A stretch of DNA of 64,000 nt from an uncultured Spirochaetota bacterium (lineage in GTDB: Bacteria; Spirochaetota; Spirochaetia; SZUA-6; CAVTHK01), in NCBI GenBank assembly GCA_963734495.1, contig CAVTHK010000001.1:320001-384000 (forward strand), written 5' to 3'. The position numbers and the translations under genes are program-made. The notes under the pieces are model-generated. The model saw nothing but the letters and a program-made list of their open reading frames with translations, was not told the origin of the DNA and did not search any database. Within the stretch, counting starts at the first letter, position 1, and every line of letters starts with the position of its first letter. Of this stretch, positions 14,561 through 63,335 are shown piece after piece.

Positions 14561-15583
14561 TTACTCGATCTCGTCGATGACGATCTTGGTGACCTCGCCC
14601 GGGTGGGCCTTCCAGAACGAGAGCGCCTCGCCGGCCCGCGCGAACGGAAAGCGGTGGGTGATGATCGGGGCCACATCGAGCCGGCTCTCGCGCAGCATCG
14701 CGATCACGTCGGCAAAGTCCGGCGGCAGCGCGTTGCGCGAGCCGCGGATGTCGAGCTCCTTCTGGACGAAGTTCTTCGTTTCGTACGGGACCTCCTTGCT
14801 CGCGTAGCCGATGTACACGACGGTCCCGCAGTAGCAGACGATATCGACGGCCGCCCGGTAGGTCTGCGGAAGCCCGACCGCCTCGATCACGACGTCGGCG
14901 CCGTGCCCGCCGGTGAGCGATAGGACGCGCTCGGCGAGCGGCTCGCTGCGGCTGTTGATGCCGGCGGCCGCGCCGAGAGCGCGCGCGAGGGCGATCTTGG
15001 CGTCGTCGATGTCGATGGCGATCACCTCCGCTCCGGCCCGCGCCGCCCCCACGATCGCGCCGAGGCCGATCATCCCGCAGCCGAACACCGCCACCTTGTC
15101 GCCCGGCTTGGCCTGGCCGCGGCGCACCGCGTGAAAGCCGACCGACAGCGGCTCGACCAGGGTCAGCCGGTCCCAGCTCAGGTCGCCCGCCGGAAACACC
15201 TTGGTTTCGGGCGCGCTGACGAACAGCGTCGCGGCCCCGTCGCGCTGCACCCCCATCGTCTGGTTGGACTTGCAGGCATTGGGCCGCCCCTTGCGGCAGG
15301 AGCTGCAGACGCCGCAGCTCGTGTACGGGTAGAGCGTCACGCGCGCGCCCTTCTCGAGCCGCGCCTGGACCCCGGGCCCGACCGACACGACCTCGGCCGC
15401 CGTCTCGTGCCCGACGATCCGGGGAAAGGTCACCAGGGGATTGTCGCCGGCGAACGACTTGAGGTCGCTGCCGCAGAGACCGAGCTGCCGGATGCGCACC
15501 AGCACCTCGCCCCGCCCCGGCGCGGGCTCAGGGATGTCGCGGAAGCCGGTCCTGCCCGGCTCCAGGATGGCGCACGCCTTCAT
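14561..15583 (-). CDS. zinc-binding alcohol dehydrogenase (L-galactonate 5-dehydrogenase/YjjN-like)
   Basis: CGSD, GHE, CGVCSSC...C, GCGMIG, KELDIRGSRNA. Confidence 0.88.
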   Translation of the reverse strand: MKACAILEPGRTGFRDIPEPAPGRGEVLVRIRQLGLCGSDLKSFAGDNPLVTFPRIVGHETAAEVVSVGPGVQARLEKGARVTLYPYTSCGVCSSCRKGRPNACKSNQTMGVQRDGAATLFVSAPETKVFPAGDLSWDRLTLVEPLSVGFHAVRRGQAKPGDKVAVFGCGMIGLGAIVGAARAGAEVIAIDIDDAKIALARALGAAAGINSRSEPLAERVLSLTGGHGADVVIEAVGLPQTYRAAVDIVCYCGTVVYIGYASKEVPYETKNFVQKELDIRGSRNALPPDFADVIAMLRESRLDVAPIITHRFPFARAGEALSFWKAHPGEVTKIVIDEIE

Positions 15584-15596
15584 TCTTCCCTCCTAT

Positions 15597-15837
15597 GACG
15601 TGACGTCCCTCGTCACGTCCCAAGTCCCGAGTCCTCGAGGGGCCCTCCGTGACGTCCTCGTCACGTCCCAAGTCCCGAGTCCGCGAGGGGCCCTCCGTGA
15701 CGTCCTCGTCACGTCCCAAGTCCCGAGTCCGCGAGGGGCCCTCCGTGACGTCCTCGTCACGTCCCAAGTCCCGAGTCCTCGAGGGGCCCTCCGTGACGTC
15801 CTCGTCACGTCCCAAGTCCCGAGTCCTCGAAGGGCCC
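15597..15837 (-). repeat. 48-bp tandem array, 5 units (array A), intergenic
   Basis: Sense unit GGGCCCCTCG(A/C)GGACTCGGGACTTGGGACGTGACGAGGACGTCACGGA; last unit 49 bp ending CGTCACGTC, then ATAGGAGG SD. Confidence 0.97.
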
Positions 15838-15840
15838 TGC

Positions 15841-16878
15841 CTAACCAAGATAAGGATAGTCGCGGGCCACGAGACCGGCGTCCTTGAGCGCGGTCCAGAA
15901 CGGCGTGGGGACCTCGGCATCGGCGAGCGCGGCGTTGTCGGCCACGCGCTCGGCCCGGCTCGTGTTCAGCGAGACCGCGGCGACACCGGGGGGCGAGAGC
16001 GCGAACTGCACGCAGACGGCCGGCGCCGACACGCCGTGGCGCGCGCAGAGCGCGAGGAAGCGCTCGCGCCATTCGAACAGCGGCCGCTCGCGCGCGGGAT
16101 CCGGCCTGCGATAGTCGAAGAACTCGCCGCCGGTGAGGAAACCGGCGTGGAACACCGCCGAGTTCACGATCCCGACGCCCCGCTCGCGCAGGCGCTCCAC
16201 GAACGCGAGGAGCTCCGGCGGATGGCGATACACCGTGAGGCTGCACGCCAGCATCACCCAGTCGAGGTCGACGGCGTCGGCGATCTCCCGGATCACGGTC
16301 CAGTCCTTGCTCCCGACGCCGACGGCCCGCGCCTCGCCCCGGGAGCGGACCTCGCCTAACGCGTCGTAGGCGTCCCGCACGTCCGCGAAGCGTCGGCGGC
16401 GCTCGGCGCCGCCGCCCGCCGCCGCGAGGTATTCGTCGGGATCGTGCACCGAGACGAGGTCGGCGCGGAATCCCTCGCCGAGGAGGCTGTTGCCCTGCCG
16501 CCAGCACTCCACGATCCCCTCGCGGCCGATGCGCTGCTCCGCGTCGTGCGCGAGGCCCTTCCAGGCGCCCGGCTCGAACGTCGGCTCGCTGCCGCGCAGC
16601 GGGACGCGCAGCCACCCCAGCTTGTTGCTGATCAGCACATCCGCGGGCCGCGCGCCGAGGTCCCGCAGGGCCCCGCCCAGGGCCTCGAGCGCCAGCCCCG
16701 CCCCGTACTTGCCTGCCGAGTCGAAGACCACCGGCCGGCTCACACGGGCGAGGCACTCGCCGACGATCGCGCGCTTCGCCTCGAACGGGAGGGCCCGGTA
16801 CAGGTTGCCCAGGCTGCTCGTCCCGAAGATGACCGGCGGAACGGTGAGGCCCGTGCGGCCGAAAAGCCTGCGCGTCAT
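15841..16878 (-). CDS. aldo/keto reductase (D-threo-aldose/L-fucose/L-galactose 1-dehydrogenase-like)
   Basis: FGTSSLGNLY, DSAGKYGAG, SNKLG, SVHDPDEY; ATG overlaps the LacI stop. Confidence 0.85.
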   Translation of the reverse strand: MTRRLFGRTGLTVPPVIFGTSSLGNLYRALPFEAKRAIVGECLARVSRPVVFDSAGKYGAGLALEALGGALRDLGARPADVLISNKLGWLRVPLRGSEPTFEPGAWKGLAHDAEQRIGREGIVECWRQGNSLLGEGFRADLVSVHDPDEYLAAAGGGAERRRRFADVRDAYDALGEVRSRGEARAVGVGSKDWTVIREIADAVDLDWVMLACSLTVYRHPPELLAFVERLRERGVGIVNSAVFHAGFLTGGEFFDYRRPDPARERPLFEWRERFLALCARHGVSAPAVCVQFALSPPGVAAVSLNTSRAERVADNAALADAEVPTPFWTALKDAGLVARDYPYLG

Positions 16879-17876
16879 CGGATCGCCCCCACGGACTCGT
16901 GCACGTGCAGCTCCGCCTGCAGCCGCACCGTTCGGGGGAAACCGCCCCACTCTCCAGCCATGCGGCGCGCGAGAAGCTCCTCCACGGTGCTCGCAATCTC
17001 CCGCAGGGGCTGCGCCACCACGGTGAGCCGCGGCTTGAAGATCATGGCGAGCTCCAGGCTGTCGAAGCCCACCAGCGAGAGATCGCGCGGCACCCGCAAC
17101 CCCCGTTCGTTCAACGCCATGATGCACCCCAGCGTCATCTCGTAGTTGGTCGTGTAGATCGCGGTCGGCTGCGGGCGCGCGTCGAGCAGAGCGAGCGCGG
17201 CGCGGTGGCCTCCGGCCACGGTGTAAGCGCCGTTGCTGACCAGAGCGGCGCGGGGGGTCACGCCCGCGTCGCGAAGGGCGGCGTTGAACCCCGCGAGCCG
17301 GCGGCCCGCCGTGTAGACGCTTCGCGGCCCCACGATGATGCCGAGGCGTCGGTGCCCGCGCTCGAGCAAGTGCGCGGCCACGGCCCGCGAGGCGGCCTCG
17401 TTGTCGATGACCGCGGCGTCGACGGCCGCGGCCGAGAGAAGCCGGTCGAAAAGCACGAGCGGGAACCGCCTCGCGGCGAGGGCGGCGAGCGCGGGCTGGT
17501 TCCGCCGGCACGGCACCGCGACGAGGCCGTCGATGCGCCTGCTGAGCAGGAAGTCGAGCTTGCTTTCAAAGGTTCGCGCGTCGTCGCGGTAGTCGCACAC
17601 GACCGTCGTATATCCCCGGCTCTGCGCGAAGCTCTCCACGTGCGACGCGATCGTCGCGAAGAACACGCCCTCGAGCCGCGGGATGAGCACGCCGATGCTC
17701 ATCGAGCGGTTGATCTTGAGCCCTCGCGCCAGGTCGTTCCGTCGGAAGGCCAGCCGCTTGATGACCCGCTCGAGGCTGGCACGGTTGGCGGGAAGCACGC
17801 TGCCGCCGTTGATGTACTTCGAAACGGTGGCGATCGACAGTCCGGCGAGCGCCGCCACGTCCTTGATGGTGGAAAT
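16875..17876 (-). CDS. LacI family transcriptional regulator
   Basis: STIKDVAALAGLSIATVS HTH, NDLARGLK hinge, VGFD; probable ATT start at 17876 (GTG 17960 is an alternative). Confidence 0.92.
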   Translation of the reverse strand: MSTIKDVAALAGLSIATVSKYINGGSVLPANRASLERVIKRLAFRRNDLARGLKINRSMSIGVLIPRLEGVFFATIASHVESFAQSRGYTTVVCDYRDDARTFESKLDFLLSRRIDGLVAVPCRRNQPALAALAARRFPLVLFDRLLSAAAVDAAVIDNEAASRAVAAHLLERGHRRLGIIVGPRSVYTAGRRLAGFNAALRDAGVTPRAALVSNGAYTVAGGHRAALALLDARPQPTAIYTTNYEMTLGCIMALNERGLRVPRDLSLVGFDSLELAMIFKPRLTVVAQPLREIASTVEELLARRMAGEWGGFPRTVRLQAELHVHESVGAIR

Positions 17877-17956: not shown

Positions 17957-19591
17957 TCACAGCGTCAGCAGCGAGTCCAGCTTGACCTGCTCCTCGCCGA
18001 GCTGCACCTCGACCACGGTCGCGATCGTGTCGGGGATCCGCTCAGGCCGGTCGATGACCAGGCGGTGCTGCTTCTGCGACTTGTTCAATACCGTGGCGTA
18101 CTTCACGGTGGCCGAAGGGTCGGCGAGCAGGCGAACGGCCTTTATGCTGTTCGCAAGCCCGTGGATCGTGAGCCTGTGGGGCCAGTCGAACACGTGCAGG
18201 AAGAGGCGTCCCGGTTTGAATGTCACCCCGCCCCAGCTCGACGGGTCGTAGGGAAGCACGGGCGCCGGCCTGGTGCCGTAGATCGCCTCGCCGCTCGCGG
18301 TCACCCAGCGGCCGACGTCGCGAAGAATCCGCACGCTCGGCTCCGGGATGACGCCCTCGGCCGTCGGGCCCACGTTGAGCAGGTAGTTGCCCCCGCGGCC
18401 GTTGATCATGACGAGCAGCCGCGCGACTCGCTCGGCGCTTTTCCAGTTGTGGTCGAAGCTCTTGAATCCCCAGGTGTCGTTGAGCGTCGCCGGGATCTCC
18501 CAGTCGCGGTCCAGAGGCAGGCTCGGGATCAGGTTGTCCCCGGTGTTGATGTAATCGCCGCACTGGTTTCCGATCCGGCCGTTGACGAGGCAGGACGGCT
18601 GGATCTCCTTGACGAACCGGTAGAGCTGCTGGCTGTACTTGAGCTCGACGTTCATCGGCGTGTCGAACCAGATCATGCCGATGTCGCCGTACTGCGTGAG
18701 CAGCTCCCGAACCTGCGGCTTGCACTTGGCCTCGAAGTAGCGGCCGTAATCCTTGGCCTTCTCATCGGGCCAGTCCCACGTGTTGCCGACGGCGTCCTTC
18801 TCGTGCCAGTCCTGGACCTGGGAATAGTAGAAGCAGAGCTTCAGCCCCGCATCGCGGCACGCCTGCGCGAGGTCGACCATCGGGTCGCGCCTAAAGGGCG
18901 TCGCGTCCACGATGTTGTAGGGCGAGCAGCGGGAGCGGTACATCGCGAAGCCGTCATGGTGCTTGGCGGTGATCGTGACGTACTTCATGCCGGCGTCTTT
19001 CGCCAGGCGCACCCACTCGCGGGCGTCGAACCGCACCGGGTTGAACTGGCCGGCGATCTTCTCGTAATCGGCGACCGGGATCTTGCCGTCGTGCATGATC
19101 CACTCGCCGATGTTCGGCGTCTGCCAGCCCTTCCATTCGCCGGCGAGCACAGAGTAGAGACCCCAATGGATGAACAGGCCGTAGCGCGCCTCGCGCCACC
19201 ACCGGATCGCCCGCTCGGCCGCGGGGTCCAGCGCCTTCTTCGCCGGGGCCGCCGGCGCGGGCTTCGCAGCCGGCCGGACAGGCGCCCTTACCGCCTTTGC
19301 CGCGCGCACCGGCCTGGCGGGGCGGCTCGCCTTTCGCTTCGCGGCGGGTCTGGCTGCGCGGCGCGGGCGCCGGGCCGCCGCCTTGCGGGTGGCCGCCTTG
19401 CGGGCCGGCGCCTTGCGGGCCGGCCGGGCCTTCGCGCGCCGGGCCGGCGCGGCCTTCCGCGCGGCTCGCCTCGCGGCCTTCCTCGGGGCTGCCTTTCGCG
19501 CCTTTCGCGCACTCCTCGCCGGCTTCGCGGCTCGCCTCGCCTTCGCGGCCTTCGCGGGCCGCTTCGCTCTCGATGCCTTCTTCTTTGCCAT
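17957..19591 (-). CDS. GH29 alpha-L-fucosidase with N-terminal K/R/A/P-rich extension
   Basis: GLFIHWGLYS, TAKHHDGF, IWFD, YLLNVGP; GAGGAGG SD before ATG 19591. Confidence 0.92.
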   Translation of the reverse strand: MAKKKASRAKRPAKAAKARRAAKPARSARKARKAAPRKAARRAARKAAPARRAKARPARKAPARKAATRKAAARRPRRAARPAAKRKASRPARPVRAAKAVRAPVRPAAKPAPAAPAKKALDPAAERAIRWWREARYGLFIHWGLYSVLAGEWKGWQTPNIGEWIMHDGKIPVADYEKIAGQFNPVRFDAREWVRLAKDAGMKYVTITAKHHDGFAMYRSRCSPYNIVDATPFRRDPMVDLAQACRDAGLKLCFYYSQVQDWHEKDAVGNTWDWPDEKAKDYGRYFEAKCKPQVRELLTQYGDIGMIWFDTPMNVELKYSQQLYRFVKEIQPSCLVNGRIGNQCGDYINTGDNLIPSLPLDRDWEIPATLNDTWGFKSFDHNWKSAERVARLLVMINGRGGNYLLNVGPTAEGVIPEPSVRILRDVGRWVTASGEAIYGTRPAPVLPYDPSSWGGVTFKPGRLFLHVFDWPHRLTIHGLANSIKAVRLLADPSATVKYATVLNKSQKQHRLVIDRPERIPDTIATVVEVQLGEEQVKLDSLLTL

Positions 19592-38324: not shown

Positions 38325-40655
38325 GTGATCACGCTGCACACCCTGGGATACCCGCGCATCGGCGCGCGACGCGAGCTCAAGGACGCCCTCGAGGCGTTCT
38401 GGGCGGGTCGCATCGGCGCGGCCGGCCTGGCCGCCGCGGTCGCCCGCCTGCGCGACACCCGATGGAAGGAGCAGGCGGACGCCGGCATCGATCTCGTCCC
38501 CGCCGGCGACCTGCCGCTCTACGACCATGTCCTGGACACGAGCCTGCTCCTCGGCGCAGTCCCGCGCCGCTTCCGCTCGATCAGCGACCCGGTCGAGCTC
38601 GAGTTCGCCATGGCGCGCGGCGCCACTGGAGGCGACGGCCGGCTCGCCGCCTGCGACATGACCAAGTGGTTCGACACCAACTACCACTACATCGTGCCGG
38701 AGCTCGAGCCCGACCAGGAGCTGTCGCTGCACCCGCGGCGCCTGCTCGACGAGACGGCGGCCGCGATCGCGGCCGGCCTTGCGCCGAAGCCGGTCCTCGT
38801 CGGACCGCTCACCTTCCTCTGGATCGCCAGGACTGCCGGCGACGGGCCGGACCGTCCCGGGTACCTCGAACGGATCCTCCCGCTCTACCGCGAGCTGCTC
38901 GCCCTGCTTGCCGCCGGCGGCGCGCGATGGGTGGAGCTCGACGAGCCGATCCTCGCGCTCGACCTTCCGGAAGCCTGGGTCGAGGCGGCGCGCGCCGCCT
39001 ACGCCCGGCTCGCGGCCGGGGCGCCGCGCCCGAGGATCCTGCTCGCCGCCTACTTCGGCCCGCTGGCCGAAAACCTCCGCGCCGCCGCTGAGCTGCCCGT
39101 CGACGGCCTGCACCTGGACGCGGTGCGGGGGCGCGCGGACGTCAGGGGCGCGGCGGCGCTCGCTGCCGCGGCCTCCGGCAAGGTCCTCTCCCTCGGCGTC
39201 GTGGACGGCCGCAACGTGTGGCGGACCGACCTCGCGGCTGCGCTCGACTCGCTCGAGCCCGTCCACGACAGGCTCGGCGAACGCCTGTGGCTCGCGCCTT
39301 CGTGCTCGCTGCTCCACGTGCCCGTGAGCCTCGCCTCCGAGCGCGGCCTGGACCCTGCCCTGCGCGGCCGCCTCGCGTTCGCGCGCGAAAAGCTCGCCGA
39401 GCTTGCGGTGCTGCGAACGGCGCTCGAGCGCGGGCGCGACGCGGTGCGCGCGGAGCTCGAGGCCGGGGCGGCGGCCGCGGCGCGGGCCGCGGGCCGGGCG
39501 GCCGACGCGCCCGACCCGCGTGTCCGCAGCGAGGCGGTCCGCGCCCGCGCGCGGGCGGTCACGCCCGAGATGGCGCGGCGGCGCGCGCCCCACCCGGTCC
39601 GCGCGCGGCTGCAGCGGACGCGCTTCGCGCTGCCGCCGTTTCCAACCACCACGATCGGCTCGTTCCCGCAGACGGCCGAGCTGCGGCGCGCGCGGCGCGC
39701 CCTCAGGCGCGGCGAGATCGACGAGGCCGCCTACCGCGGCCGGATCGAAGCGGAGATCGCCGCCGTCATCCGCGAGCAGGAGGCGATCGGGCTCGACGTG
39801 CTCGTTCACGGCGAAGCCGAGCGCACCGACATGGTCGAGTACTTCGCGGCGCAGCTCGAGGGCTTCGCCGTCACTGAGAACGGCTGGGTCCAGTCGTACG
39901 GAAGCCGCTGCGTCAAGCCGCCCATCATCTGGGCCGACGTCGAGCGGCCGCGCCCGATGACGGTCTCCTGGGCGCGCTTCGCCCAGTCGCTGACCGCGAA
40001 GCCGGTCAAGGGCATGCTCACCGGCCCGGTGACGATGCTGAACTGGTCCTTCGTCCGCGACGACCTCCCGCGCGCCGAGACGGCTCTCCAGATCGCGCTC
40101 GCCCTGCGCGACGAGGTGCTCGACCTCGAGCGCGCGGGCACCGGCATCATCCAGGTGGACGAGCCCGCGCTGCGCGAAGGGCTTCCGCTCCGAAGCGCCG
40201 AGAGGCCCGCCTACCTCGAATGGGCGGTGCGCGCCTTTGGCGTCGCGACGGCGGCGGTGACCAACCAGACGCAGATCCACACCCACATGTGCTATTCCGA
40301 GTTCGCCGAGATCATCGAGGCGATCGCGGCCCTCGACGCGGACGTCATCACGATCGAGGCGGCCCGATCCGCCATGGAGCTGCTCGAGTCGTTCCGGGGC
40401 TTCCGCTATCCCAACGAGATCGGCCCAGGCGTCTACGACATCCACAGCCCGACGGTCCCTTCGCGGGAGGAGATCGAGGCGCAGCTCGAGCGCGCCGCCG
40501 CGGTCATCGACCCCGACCGGCTCTGGGTCAACCCGGACTGCGGCCTCAAGACCCGCGGCTGGGACGAGGTGCGCCCCTCGCTGCGGAACATGGTCGCCGC
40601 AGCCCGTGCCCTGCGCGCAGTCTACGGGCCCAAGGCCGCCGTGCCCGCAGGCTGA
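38325..40655 (+). CDS. metE: cobalamin-independent methionine synthase
   Basis: LGYPRIG, MTKWFDTNYHY, HGEAERTDMVEYF, HTHMCYSEF, NPDCGLKTR; GTG with GGAGG SD. Confidence 0.97.
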   Translation: MITLHTLGYPRIGARRELKDALEAFWAGRIGAAGLAAAVARLRDTRWKEQADAGIDLVPAGDLPLYDHVLDTSLLLGAVPRRFRSISDPVELEFAMARGATGGDGRLAACDMTKWFDTNYHYIVPELEPDQELSLHPRRLLDETAAAIAAGLAPKPVLVGPLTFLWIARTAGDGPDRPGYLERILPLYRELLALLAAGGARWVELDEPILALDLPEAWVEAARAAYARLAAGAPRPRILLAAYFGPLAENLRAAAELPVDGLHLDAVRGRADVRGAAALAAAASGKVLSLGVVDGRNVWRTDLAAALDSLEPVHDRLGERLWLAPSCSLLHVPVSLASERGLDPALRGRLAFAREKLAELAVLRTALERGRDAVRAELEAGAAAAARAAGRAADAPDPRVRSEAVRARARAVTPEMARRRAPHPVRARLQRTRFALPPFPTTTIGSFPQTAELRRARRALRRGEIDEAAYRGRIEAEIAAVIREQEAIGLDVLVHGEAERTDMVEYFAAQLEGFAVTENGWVQSYGSRCVKPPIIWADVERPRPMTVSWARFAQSLTAKPVKGMLTGPVTMLNWSFVRDDLPRAETALQIALALRDEVLDLERAGTGIIQVDEPALREGLPLRSAERPAYLEWAVRAFGVATAAVTNQTQIHTHMCYSEFAEIIEAIAALDADVITIEAARSAMELLESFRGFRYPNEIGPGVYDIHSPTVPSREEIEAQLERAAAVIDPDRLWVNPDCGLKTRGWDEVRPSLRNMVAAARALRAVYGPKAAVPAG

Positions 40656-40694
40656 CCCGCAGGCTGACCCGCAGGCTGACGGCCCGCGGGCTGA
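40644..40694 (+). repeat. 12-bp tandem repeat CCCGCAGGCTGA x3 plus one degenerate copy
   Basis: First copy holds the metE stop codon. Confidence 0.85.
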
Positions 40695-51900: not shown

Positions 51901-52911
51901 ATGAGGCGGGTCTTCGCATGGCTCGCGGCGCTGCTGTGCGCGGCGCTGCTGTGCGCGGCGCCGGCTTCTCACGGACAGACATCGATCATCGTCGCTCAGA
52001 GGGCCATACCGCTGCCGGGCGTGGAAGGCCGCATCGACCACCTGGCGATCGACCTGCCGCGCAAGCGTCTGTTCGTCTCGGCGCTCGGCAGCAATTCGCT
52101 TGAGGTGGTCGACCTGGTTTCCTCGGCGGTGATCCGCAGGATCGGAGGGCTCGAGGAGCCCCAGGGAGCGTACTACGCCGCGGACTCCGACAAGCTCTAC
52201 GTCACCAACGCGGGCAGTGGCCTGTGCGACGTCTTCGACGGCGCATCCCTGCGGCTGCTCTCGCGGATCGACCTGGGAGGCGACGCGGACAACATCCACG
52301 GCGATCCTGACTCGCATCGGGTTCTGATTGCCGCCGGAAACGGGATATCGGTCGTGGATACGACAAGCGGTCGACGGGTCGCCGAAATCGGGCTGCCGGG
52401 GCACCCGGAAGGGTTCGCGCTGGACCCGCAAGGATCCGCGCTGTTCGCCAACGTTCCCGCTCCCGCGCGAGGCGTGTTCGTGCTGGATCTGGTTCGGGAT
52501 GCGGTGATCAAGCGCTGGTCCATCGGCGGCCCGCTTGCGAACGCCTTCTCGAACTTCCCGATGGGGCTCGATGACGCGCATCGCAGGCTCTTCGTCGCGA
52601 CGCGGACGCCGGCCGCGCTCAAGGTGCTCGACGCCGATACGGGCAAGGTGGTCGCCGGCCTGAAAGTCGACGGAGACGCCGACGACGTCTTCTACGATGC
52701 CCGACGCCGGTGCCTGTACGTGTCGTGCGGCAACGGCTTCCTCGATGTCATTCAGCAGACGGATCCCGACCATTACCGGGTGACCGCGAGAACACCGACG
52801 GCGGCAGGCGCACGGACGTCGCTCTGGGTGCCCGAGATGGACCGGCTCTTCGTGGCAGTCCCTCGCCGCGGCAGCCAGCAGGCGGAGATCCGGGTCTTCG
52901 CGCCGGAGTAG
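51901..52911 (+). CDS. secreted YncE/YVTN-like beta-propeller protein
   Basis: Signal peptide, GRIDHLAID, EPQG, HPEGF, NFPM, GARTSL; GGAGGAG SD. Confidence 0.82.
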   Translation: MRRVFAWLAALLCAALLCAAPASHGQTSIIVAQRAIPLPGVEGRIDHLAIDLPRKRLFVSALGSNSLEVVDLVSSAVIRRIGGLEEPQGAYYAADSDKLYVTNAGSGLCDVFDGASLRLLSRIDLGGDADNIHGDPDSHRVLIAAGNGISVVDTTSGRRVAEIGLPGHPEGFALDPQGSALFANVPAPARGVFVLDLVRDAVIKRWSIGGPLANAFSNFPMGLDDAHRRLFVATRTPAALKVLDADTGKVVAGLKVDGDADDVFYDARRRCLYVSCGNGFLDVIQQTDPDHYRVTARTPTAAGARTSLWVPEMDRLFVAVPRRGSQQAEIRVFAPE

Positions 52912-61330: not shown

Positions 61331-61492
61331 CCCTTCGAGTATACCCTTCCCAACGCATCGGCGGAACGCAGCACATTGGCCGGCGCCGATGCGGCCGCTG
61401 CCCGGAGCGCTTCGGCAGCAGGAATGGCCGGCTGCGACGCGGGCTCCGCGCTCAAGCCCTGTGGGGCATCAGATGCGCTATACTGGCACCCG

Positions 61493-62584
61493 ATGAGCTT
61501 TCTCGACGAGCTGACCACGGAGCAGCCCAACCCGGCATCGCAGGGCATAGACGCCAAGTCGACGCGCGAGATCCTCGAGATCATCAACTCCGAGGACCGC
61601 AAGGTGCCCGCCGCGGTCGCCGCAACGCTCGACTCGATCGCCCGCGTCGTCGACGCCGCGGTCGCCGGGTTCAGAAGCGGCGGCCGCCTCTTCTACGTCG
61701 GCGCAGGCACATCCGGCCGCCTCGGCGTTCTGGACGCCGCCGAGTGCCCGCCCACCTACGGCGTTCCGCCCGAGATGGTGCAGGGGATCATCGCGGGCGG
61801 GCCCGACGCGCTCACCCGCTCCATCGAAGGCGCCGAGGACGACGAGGCAGCCGGCGGCCGGATCATCGACGACCGCGGCCTCGCCGCGGGCGACGTCCTG
61901 GTCGGCATCACGGCGAGCGGGCAGGCGCCCTTCGTGATCGGAGCGATGAAGCGCGCGCGCGAGCGCGGCGCGACCGTCGCGGCGCTCAGCTGCAACCGCG
62001 GCTCGCGCACCTTCGAGCACGCCGACCACGTCATCTTCGTCGACGTCGGCCCGGAGATCGTCTCCGGGTCCACGCGCATGAAATCGGGCACGGCCCAGAA
62101 GCTGGTGCTCAACATGATCAGCACGGCGGCGATGATCCGGCTGGGCAAGGTCTACAACAACCTGATGGTCGACCTGCGGCCGGTGAACAGCAAGCTCGTG
62201 CGCCGCTCGCAGCGCCTCATCCGCATCGCCACCGGCTGCGACGAGCCCGCCGCTGAGCGCGCCTTCGAGGCCTCCGGCCGCAGGCCGAAGACCGCGATCG
62301 TGATGGTGCTGCTGGGGTGCAGCCGCGAGGAGGCCGAGCTCCTGCTGGAAGCGAGCGAAGGCCGGATCGGCCTGGCCGTGGAGAAGGCGGGCCCCTCGAA
62401 GGCTCGGGGCTTGGGACTTGGCGAAGACGCCACAGAGGGCCCCTCGAAGGCTCGGGGCTTGGGACTTGGCGAGGACGCCACAGAGGGCCCCTCGAAGGCT
62501 CGGGGCTTGGGACTTGGCGAGGACGCCACAGAGGGCCCCTCGAAGGCTCGGGGCTTGGGACTTGGCGAGGACGCCAAGTCATAG
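61493..62584 (+). CDS. murQ: N-acetylmuramic acid 6-phosphate etherase with repeat-derived C-terminal extension
   Basis: GAGTSGRLGVLDAAECPPT, EGAEDD, GSTRMKSGTAQK, NLMVD; start at ATG 61493. Confidence 0.95.
   Translation: MSFLDELTTEQPNPASQGIDAKSTREILEIINSEDRKVPAAVAATLDSIARVVDAAVAGFRSGGRLFYVGAGTSGRLGVLDAAECPPTYGVPPEMVQGIIAGGPDALTRSIEGAEDDEAAGGRIIDDRGLAAGDVLVGITASGQAPFVIGAMKRARERGATVAALSCNRGSRTFEHADHVIFVDVGPEIVSGSTRMKSGTAQKLVLNMISTAAMIRLGKVYNNLMVDLRPVNSKLVRRSQRLIRIATGCDEPAAERAFEASGRRPKTAIVMVLLGCSREEAELLLEASEGRIGLAVEKAGPSKARGLGLGEDATEGPSKARGLGLGEDATEGPSKARGLGLGEDATEGPSKARGLGLGEDAKS
62389..62580 (+). repeat. 48-bp tandem array, 4 units (array B), inside the murQ 3' end
   Basis: Unit GGGCCCCTCGAAGGCTCGGGGCTTGGGACTTGGCGAGGACGCCACAGA; last unit ends CGCCAAGTC, then ATAGGAGG. 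Confidence 0.97.
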
Positions 62585-62594
62585 GAGGTCAAGA

Positions 62595-63335
62595 ATGAAG
62601 GTCACTGCCCTCTTGATCGTCGCGCTCGCGGCGGCGCCGGCGTTCGCGCCCTCGGCCGGGGCCCAGGCGCAGCCCGCGCCCCCGGTCGACCAGTTCATCA
62701 CCGATGCAGGATCGCTTTCCATCACCTTCATCGCGCACGCGACGCTGATGCTGCAGCTCGGCCCGCTGGTGATCCACGTCGACCCGGTGGGCCGCTACGC
62801 CGACTACGGCACGATGCCCAAGGCCGACATCGTTCTGGTCACCCACGAGCACGGCGACCATCTCGACCCCGCGGCGATCCAGAAGATCCGCAAGGAAGAC
62901 ACGGCGATCATCGCCAGCGCGAGCGCGGCCGCGAAGATCCCGGGCGCGAGCGTGATGAAGAACGGCGACAAGGCCACGATCAAGGGAGTCGGGATCGAGG
63001 CCGTGCCCGCTTACAACACGACGCAGGCGAGGCTCTCCTTCCACCCGAAGGGCCGCGACAACGGCTACCTGCTCACGATCGGCGGCAAGCGCGTCTACAT
63101 AGCCGGCGATACCGAGGACACCCCCGAGCTCAAGGCCCTGCGCAACATAGACATCGCGTTCCTGCCGATGAACCTGCCGTACACCATGACCCCGGAGCAG
63201 GTGGCCTCGGCGGCGCTGGCCATCCGGCCCGGGGTGCTCTACCCCTATCACTACGGGGAGACGGACGTCGGGCTGCTGCAGCAGATGCTCAAGGGCGAAC
63301 GCGGGATCGAGGTGCGCATCCGGCCGATGCAGTGA
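62595..63335 (+). CDS. secreted MBL-fold metallo-hydrolase
   Basis: Signal peptide, THEHGDHLD, YIAGDT, YPYHY; AGGAGG SD. Confidence 0.9.
   Translation: MKVTALLIVALAAAPAFAPSAGAQAQPAPPVDQFITDAGSLSITFIAHATLMLQLGPLVIHVDPVGRYADYGTMPKADIVLVTHEHGDHLDPAAIQKIRKEDTAIIASASAAAKIPGASVMKNGDKATIKGVGIEAVPAYNTTQARLSFHPKGRDNGYLLTIGGKRVYIAGDTEDTPELKALRNIDIAFLPMNLPYTMTPEQVASAALAIRPGVLYPYHYGETDVGLLQQMLKGERGIEVRIRPMQ

Follow-up and report, generated by a model that had tools for sequence, protein, structure and literature searches.

What kind of repeat stops, copy after copy, flush with a ribosome-binding site, and how does it come to lie there? The question is raised by two tandem arrays, here called A and B, of a 48-bp unit in a window of 64,000 nucleotides (positions 320,001 to 384,000 of contig CAVTHK010000001.1, GenBank assembly GCA_963734495.1) from an uncultured Spirochaetota bacterium. 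The window belongs to a metagenome-assembled genome (G000) of 18 contigs and 5.38 Mb, 68% GC and 83% complete, which is compared below with one congeneric relative (G001; 99% complete, 220 contigs), the sole other genome of the genus compared. The answer that we consider probable is that the unit is a non-autonomous mobile repeat, restricted to one lineage and homing to ribosome-binding sites, and that it is of the kind represented by REP elements and by MIRUs, the mycobacterial interspersed repetitive units reportedly described by Supply et al. in 1997. Two observations carry this answer, namely that all assessable copies lie against a functional ribosome-binding site and share one orientation, and that the sister species offers clean empty sites.

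Each unit, about 48 nt long, follows a single plan: a Shine-Dalgarno (SD)-like GAGGG leads to a GC-rich hairpin (hp1), from which the linker CTTGG leads on to a second hairpin of 9 bp (hp2; GAC....CG / CG....GTC). Array A appears in the window as the reverse complement of B, each being co-oriented with its flanking genes, and the parts of the two arrays on which the argument turns are, in window coordinates, as follows.

15594–15840, minus strand: array A, five 48-bp units (SD-like GAGGG, hp1, CTTGG, hp2), from Tandem Repeats Finder (TRF), the sequence itself and matches to a covariance model.

15597–15619, minus strand: terminal hp2 of array A, nine perfect base pairs (GACGTGACG/CGTCACGTC) around the loop AGGGA, from the sequence, a minimum free energy (MFE) fold and covariation.

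15581–15593, minus strand: initiation region of the gene downstream of A, with SD GGAGG (15593–15589), a spacer and ATG (15583–15581).

62389–62583, plus strand: array B, four 48-bp units within the upstream open reading frame (ORF), at its 3′ end, from TRF, sequence and ORF.

62559–62580, plus strand: terminal hp2 of array B, a perfect 9-bp stem (GACTTGGCG/CGCCAAGTC) closed by the loop AGGA, from the sequence, the alignment of terminal units (A1, below) and covariation.

62582–62597, plus strand: end of array B, where the upstream TAG (62582–62584) overlaps the first G of the SD GGAGG (62584–62588), followed by a spacer and ATG (62595–62597).

TRF delimits array A at 15599–15838 (period 48, 5.0 copies, 97% matches) and array B at 62389–62576 (period 48, 3.9 copies, 99% matches), the copy numbers of five and four being taken from the assembly alone, and the two consensus units, set in the same phase, differ at 7 of 48 positions. 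An earlier note on this DNA, made from its letters only, had described two 48-bp arrays of five and four units alike at 41 of 48 positions, and this description is borne out, as is its account of the stems, in which an A-T pair is exchanged for G-C and a second pair changes in a compensatory manner: the internal units carry CGTGACG/CGTCACG in A and TGGCG/CGCCA in B. The 9-bp stem that it attributed to the terminal unit is indeed perfect in both arrays, although the loop in A reads AGGGA rather than the AGGA given there. Array A begins right behind the upstream stop codon and closes with ATA ahead of the SD, and both arrays run into ATAGGAGG (ATA-GGAGG), a spacer and then ATG, so that sequence and ORFs confirm what had been said of their co-orientation with the genes, their location at gene junctions and the SD and ATG that follow. 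Since the units are contiguous head to tail and lack unique spacers, the arrays are, as also stated earlier, not CRISPRs.

The two arrays are members of a much larger set. Repeat loci in G000 were collected by BLAST, nhmmer and a covariance model built on 33 terminal units, and the three agree on the set, which comprises 43 loci with arrays of 1–5 units by nhmmer and 62 unit-level matches by the covariance model. In all 43 the order hp1-then-hp2 is constant and the element points one way with respect to the gene, with no inverted pairs. The hp2 stem of 9 bp is found with at most one mismatch in 30 loci (five more matches to the regular expression are chance hairpins), and about ten loci represent a long-loop variant with a mini-hairpin (CCCC...GGGG, then TCTACGAGA) in the loop of hp2 and, in one case, that of hp1; its presence within loops indicates that units are able to nest. 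The genes downstream have unrelated functions: 40 of their proteins were scanned, 25 had Pfam matches, and they include alcohol dehydrogenase (ADH), a metallo-beta-lactamase (MBL)-fold protein, gnd, dapA, lexA, OTCase, solute-binding proteins, dehydrogenases and CutA.

That such a set might have arisen by faulty assembly or binning has to be considered for a metagenome-assembled genome, given that short reads resolve tandem 48-bp repeats poorly and that the contigs from four public DNA runs are short fragments and neither they nor the reads bridge an array. We find this explanation scarcely credible, for the 43 loci lie within long contigs with unique flanks and intact downstream genes, and the family is present in the independent assembly of G001 as well. 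A scan of metagenomes with a strict pattern of the unit gave no matches, and a loose pattern gave 76, which we attribute to chance because none of them has a 9-bp stem or matches the hidden Markov model (HMM) of the family.

How closely the family keeps to ribosome-binding sites was assessed with an HMM rebuilt without the SD columns to avoid circularity, which again retrieved 43 loci in G000. On inspection, an SD-like motif and then a start codon come after the last unit at 42 of 42 assessable loci, the one other locus running off the end of its contig, and the association with SD and start that had been proposed for two arrays therefore extends to the whole family. An automatic check of SD and start passed 32 of the 43 loci; the 11 failures included eight long-loop variants, in which the match stops in the 5′ arm with the SD behind it, and the contig end, the remaining ones being one GTG start, one SD of GGGAG type and one downstream gene with an apparent frameshift. 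The geometry is tight, with 0–3 nt from the end of the element to the SD, 10–15 nt from its end to the start codon, and a GGAG-to-start spacing of 4–9 nt (mode 6) across the 42 loci, whose start codons are ATG in 38, GTG in three and TTG in one. The triplet ahead of GGAG is ATA in 18 loci and GTA in seven, and in 26 of the 42 copies a TAG at the end of the element overlaps the SD. In favour of specific docking, G000 contains 18,886 GGAGG pentamers, of which only about 937 stand in an SD context by crude criteria. At one locus (L012, G000 C16:199747 onward) the gene downstream of the repeat is open for 37 codons only, and by eye translation resumes in another frame with the look of an SdhB/FrdB-type iron-sulfur subunit, this being a frameshift or an assembly indel.

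Gene context around the loci was read from a crude GC-frame plot, which replaced a noisier ORF-based caller and has no gene caller behind it. By this plot, 42 of 42 loci have coding sequence downstream on their own strand, and the upstream neighbour is co-directional in 31 of the 43, divergent in ten and unclear in two, a mixture indicating that it is the downstream SD, and not where the upstream gene ends, that fixes the position. Several of the divergent loci have a sigma-70-like −35/−10 pair just upstream, as judged by eye, for example the lexA leader at C6:61276. In that leader (L030, G000 C6:61276–61340) a single repeat unit lies directly behind a conserved promoter-like TTGACT...TATTCT, and the palindromic box between the two hexamers may be an SOS operator. 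Consensus scans for sigma-70-like promoters and for terminators found no sites in arrays A and B.

Whether the element brings a ribosome-binding site or comes to one already there can be read from junctions that are filled in one species and empty in the other. The genes that flank the two arrays of the window are these.

14561–15583, minus strand: gene downstream of A, a zinc-type alcohol dehydrogenase (ADH_N, ADH_zinc_N), from ORF and Pfam.

15841–16899, minus strand: gene upstream of A, an aldo/keto reductase whose stop TAG (15843–15841) adjoins the array, from ORF and Pfam.

61376–62584, plus strand: gene upstream of B, a SIS-domain (MurQ/GKRP-like) protein, from ORF and Pfam.

62595–63335, plus strand: gene downstream of B, a metallo-beta-lactamase-fold protein (Lactamase_B_3), from ORF and Pfam, with an N-terminus that looks like a signal peptide by eye.

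Ten junctions filled in G000 were located in G001, and seven of them are cleanly empty there (A, B, a fliJ-like site, L010, gnd, an aminotransferase and alanine dehydrogenase, ald), one, the lexA leader, is without a recognisable element, and two carry a version of it, a strongly diverged array at dapB-dapA and one consisting of hp2 only at the OTCase junction. The lexA leader of G001 (L173) has kept the promoter and has an unrelated leader sequence of similar length. In the reverse direction, four junctions filled in G001 were found in G000, where the rnf-like one is cleanly empty, E2-lpd and ychF have unrelated sequence and OTCase is occupied; three further sites filled in G001 have no usable orthologous junction in G000. 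The covariance model gives six family matches in G001 at E ≤ 0.001 and 15 at E ≤ 5, the weakest of them doubtful, and the G001 copies have different compensated stems and likewise end at an SD and a start. With a model that was trained on one genome and quickly loses sensitivity, 39 other genomes of the same order and 150 others of the same phylum gave no match.

The empty junctions have SDs of their own. At the G001 junction orthologous to A there is an AGGAGG without any repeat; at B, the SD and spacer (GGAGGTCAA..) are identical with and without the array; the rnf-like site retains a non-consensus GGAGC in both its filled and its empty state; and the fliJ-like site retains GGAGTGA with the native stop, the 51-nt copy lying in frame inside the upstream gene. 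At B, the rnf-like and the fliJ-like site the spacer, too, is recognisably common to both states. At the ald site the native GAGG marks the insert's left edge, and at the right one there is a new SD-like motif followed by a different spacer. Because empty junctions already own an SD, the element docks at the ribosome-binding site and does not bring it, and of the earlier proposal that the module carries or targets an initiation site, the second half is upheld and the first is not. At B, ald and the rnf-like site the upstream stop of the empty junction overlaps the start codon (ATGA) and the SD lies inside the upstream gene; as precise deletion back to such an overlap is unlikely, we read the filled state as derived. 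We hold it as firm that many SDs in this genus have recently gained the repeat or, in rarer cases, lost it, and that the repeat has been amplified locally into homogenised arrays.

Insertion at such junctions can remodel the ends of genes. The SIS-domain frame crosses all four units of array B (GPSKARGLGLGEDATE four times over) and has gained about 64 residues relative to its G001 orthologue, whose terminal TGA overlaps the ATG of the next gene. A frame of this sort invites the reading that the units are coding sequence, 16-residue tandem peptide tails of upstream proteins, for a 48-bp period makes up 16 codons, the SIS-domain ORF continues across the four units to the TAG at the SD, and the copy at the fliJ-like junction is in frame within the upstream ORF. 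We regard this as very improbable for the family: in A the upstream gene stops ahead of the array, ten loci lie in leaders with a divergent upstream gene, the changes between units keep stems and not residues, and at B all three forward frames are open over the repeats, as overlapping ORFs. For a mobile repeat that homes to ribosome-binding sites, the read-through at B and at the fliJ-like site would instead mean that with the element in place the upstream frame still ends near the following start codon.

Pairing statistics and consensus rest on alignment A1, the 33 terminal units, in which hp2 is paired in 95.6% of cells and six of its nine pairs are altered on both sides, the middle pair being C-G 14 times, U-A nine times and G-C four times. 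The whole structure was set against 500 column shuffles, none of which attains the observed values, and sliding the partner by 1–3 columns reduces pairing to 30–45% compared with the 85.6% observed. The covariation anticipated in the earlier note, and with it the idea of a dispersed REP/BIME-like family with covarying hairpins, is thus supported. A hairpin hp1 is present in every copy, with variable length and loop, and aligns poorly in MAFFT. The foot of hp2 (GAC/GTC), its top (CG/CG) and the CTTGG linker are nearly invariant, and it is the middle of the stem that covaries.

Conservation of this pattern could be expected of a cis-regulatory leader RNA, in which a trans-acting protein or small RNA binding hp2 and CUUGG would co-regulate about 45 genes, arrays adding further sites. 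The single-stranded CTTGG linker, the near-invariant foot and top and the covarying middle are what protein-recognised hairpins display, a placement at the SD would be ideal for translational control, and GGA motifs occur in the linker of array A as well as in its two loops. Against these points, seven of ten sites are empty in G001 and three of the four reverse-direction sites lack the element in G000, the functions downstream are unrelated, the copy number varies from one to five, and the loops read AAGA, CAGA, ATGA or AGTA, so that GGA is not conserved and CsrA-type binding to GGA loops was dropped as a candidate. Furthermore, the sense strand of hp2 has seven C.A mismatches and four G.U pairs; with the former at least as common as the latter, covariation is not taken as proof of RNA function at each locus, and it may instead reflect what a copy needs for its propagation. 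Rfam 15 gave no relevant match over eight loci (25 kb) at E up to 1, the only hit being ASdes at E = 0.95, at chance level and elsewhere in L003. On balance we judge a regulon of this kind unlikely. An additional helix of CUUG with the UAGG of the SD, seen in the MFE fold, is not treated as selected, inasmuch as variant linkers occur, by inspection, without a compensating change.

A mobile repeat homing to ribosome-binding sites would account for these patterns as follows. Copies would have inserted in one orientation immediately 5′ of an existing SD, be it at an operon junction, in overlap with the 3′ end of an upstream gene or in a promoter-proximal 5′ leader, after which units would have multiplied locally to give homogenised tandem arrays, with the related mini-hairpin nesting in loops. 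The element would then be transcribed within the mRNA leader or intercistronic spacer. As it folds on itself and ends 0–3 nt short of the SD, it would leave the SD free, so that insertion would do little harm and the place just before the SD might be the sole tolerated, or even a favoured, landing site. It may also aid expression, either by acting as an insulating structure or by lining up SD-like standby sites. Mobility as the cause of presence and absence, co-transcription and an effect on translation are the parts of this account that we infer. In line with it, the SD core is predicted to be more accessible at the 42 loci than in 200 control GGAGG genes (mean P(unpaired) 0.53 vs 0.35; Mann-Whitney p = 7e-6; in-silico values on windows chosen by us), which fits a modelled insulating effect in a GC-rich genome.

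A bolder version of the idea, which we find possible though doubtful, is that the repeat is a mobile leader homing to ribosome-binding sites that is copied without a transposase of its own and retained as a plug-in translation module. Its hairpins would insulate the SD, the linkers of an array would serve as standby sites and copy number would tune the downstream gene; exposed GGAGG-like linkers acting, in such a model, as ribosome standby sites could be one concrete route for such tuning. Copying might proceed by template switching at the SD-like motif that bounds the units, or through a host enzyme, or one unrelated to HUH enzymes, that recognises CTTGG and the foot of hp2. The SD-like pentamer is also the boundary between units within arrays, and its occurrence on both sides of units would fit either target duplication or copying seeded by SD microhomology.

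Several points weigh against the view of a mobile repeat homing to ribosome-binding sites. The comparison rests on one relative, so that gain and loss are not polarised by a tree; two of the ten sites are common to G000 and G001; the accessibility values are predictions; and, among eight junction pairs inspected for a target-site duplication, the SD-like pentamer flanks both sides of the insert at the rnf-like site and its left copy is missing at the fliJ-like site. In addition, no terminal inverted repeats were seen (by inspection, the ends of the A1 consensus, GAGGGCCCC... and ...GTCATA, are not inverted) and a search for Y1/RAYT transposases (PF01797) gave no matches in G000 and G001, with positive controls in 6 of 14 genomes. 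Finally, all assessable copies are at real SDs, with none at other intergenic GGAGG sites. Such exclusive placement is poorly explained by an insertion preference and purifying selection alone, and implies either that retention is favoured or that the mechanism senses functional SDs.

The missing transposase bears equally on the thought that we are dealing with an ordinary REP/BIME (REPIN) family whose RAYT happens to be absent from draft assemblies and whose SD association is a by-product of selection. GC-rich hairpins, tandem clusters and a short conserved motif on the 5′ side of the hairpin foot would all suit such a family, as would the richness of G000 in other REP-like hairpins with a CGAGTACG loop and its non-SD sister tandem family at C10:299492. 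Yet the RAYT/TnpA(REP) transposase that the earlier note had suggested was not found in either genome, the controls being positive, and there are no inverted pairs, all 43 loci having one orientation and abutting an SD; REPs are mostly located 3′ of genes. We consider this explanation quite unlikely. Reverse transcriptases (RVT_1) have three matches in G000 and one in G001, and by comparison of coordinates none is beside a repeat locus; the genes are at G000 C9:6884–7525, C2:66082–66771 and C6:83165–83572 and at G001 C17:64393–64674, one of them within an open frame of 1081 codons.

Other repeats are abundant in the same DNA. Hairpins with the CGAGTACG loop have 70 perfect 5-bp stems in G000, compared with 1–12 for control loops (examples lie at C7:100083–100131, C16:80386–80478, C13:332564–332588 and C10:6409–6572); they often form short intergenic tandem runs, and several are near CTTGAC-like motifs upstream of genes. 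The sister tandem family, of about 49 bp (C10:299492–299539 and C13:544025–544088), likewise has two hairpins, hp1 with a GAGTAC loop and hp2 with a GACG-AAGA-CGTC core, and is not beside an SD or start codon, its neighbouring genes being on the opposite strand. Within the window, TRF reports further tandem repeats at 2758–2862, 19371–19580, 40644–40680 and 51924–51961, with periods of 12–27 bp and some of them 100% identical, which are probably coding low-complexity stretches.

The family raises two questions of wider interest: how an element of 48 nt without genes finds SD sequences, and whether a self-folding leader flush with the SD alters translation or mRNA stability in genomes where GC-rich occlusion of the SD is a real risk. 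Were the element neutral, it would still be a natural example of where an operon tolerates insertions. In practical terms, the arrays are potential strain markers of the variable-number tandem repeat type, like MIRUs, and annotators should avoid labelling such repeats riboswitches or CRISPRs.

Among the matches listed by full-text literature searches there was no description of hairpin repeats that dock at SDs, and the family is best placed by its likenesses to, and differences from, systems already known. With REP, BIME and REPIN elements it shares short GC-rich covarying hairpins, a motif beside the hairpin foot, clustering, confinement to a lineage and homogenisation within a genome; it differs from them in having no RAYT that could be found, two distinct hairpins in a fixed direct order, a strict orientation and its docking at SDs. 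From MITEs (transposable elements of the miniature inverted-repeat type) it differs by the lack of terminal inverted repeats. The Neisseria REP2 and Borrelia IR-A repeats, as portrayed in a portion of the review, resemble it in being dispersed, in having two stem-loops immediately upstream of genes and in their association with ribosome-binding sites, and they are said to bring promoter, ribosome-binding site and ATG (PMC3184786). In the family described here, by contrast with that partial account, there is no promoter-like site, each locus has an SD of its own and the ATG is that of the gene; nor does the same portion report REP2 or IR-A as tandem arrays of 48 bp.

The closest likeness is to MIRUs, and it is drawn from descriptions, not from sequence. 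In parts of these descriptions, MIRUs have units of 40–100 bp at some 40–50 loci, lie in operons and show filled and empty sites, and insertion is said to occur at the start codon, where an internal ORF would be coupled at −4 and expression spared (PMC3184786, PMC12548453). On that partial basis, the shared features are tens of loci, tandem units and co-orientation with transcription (here 48 bp, 43 loci and arrays of 1–5), filled and empty sites between species (here seven of ten and one of four cleanly empty), and insertion at the translation start region that spares downstream expression, with an upstream frame that may read through. So far as the same extracts allow, the differences are equally plain: the −4 coupled ORF of MIRUs meets the start codon, and the element here ends 0–3 nt before the SD; its terminal TAG occurs in 26 of 42 copies only; 10 of 43 copies are in promoter-proximal leaders; the architecture is another one, and so is the phylum. 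Direct repeats accompany filled MIRU sites in those extracts, and here flanking repeats are found at the rnf-like site and not at the fliJ-like site. REP, MIRU, Correia and ERIC elements usually lie behind genes or at loosely defined intergenic sites, and exact and exclusive docking at the SD is a notable feature among small non-autonomous intergenic repeats.

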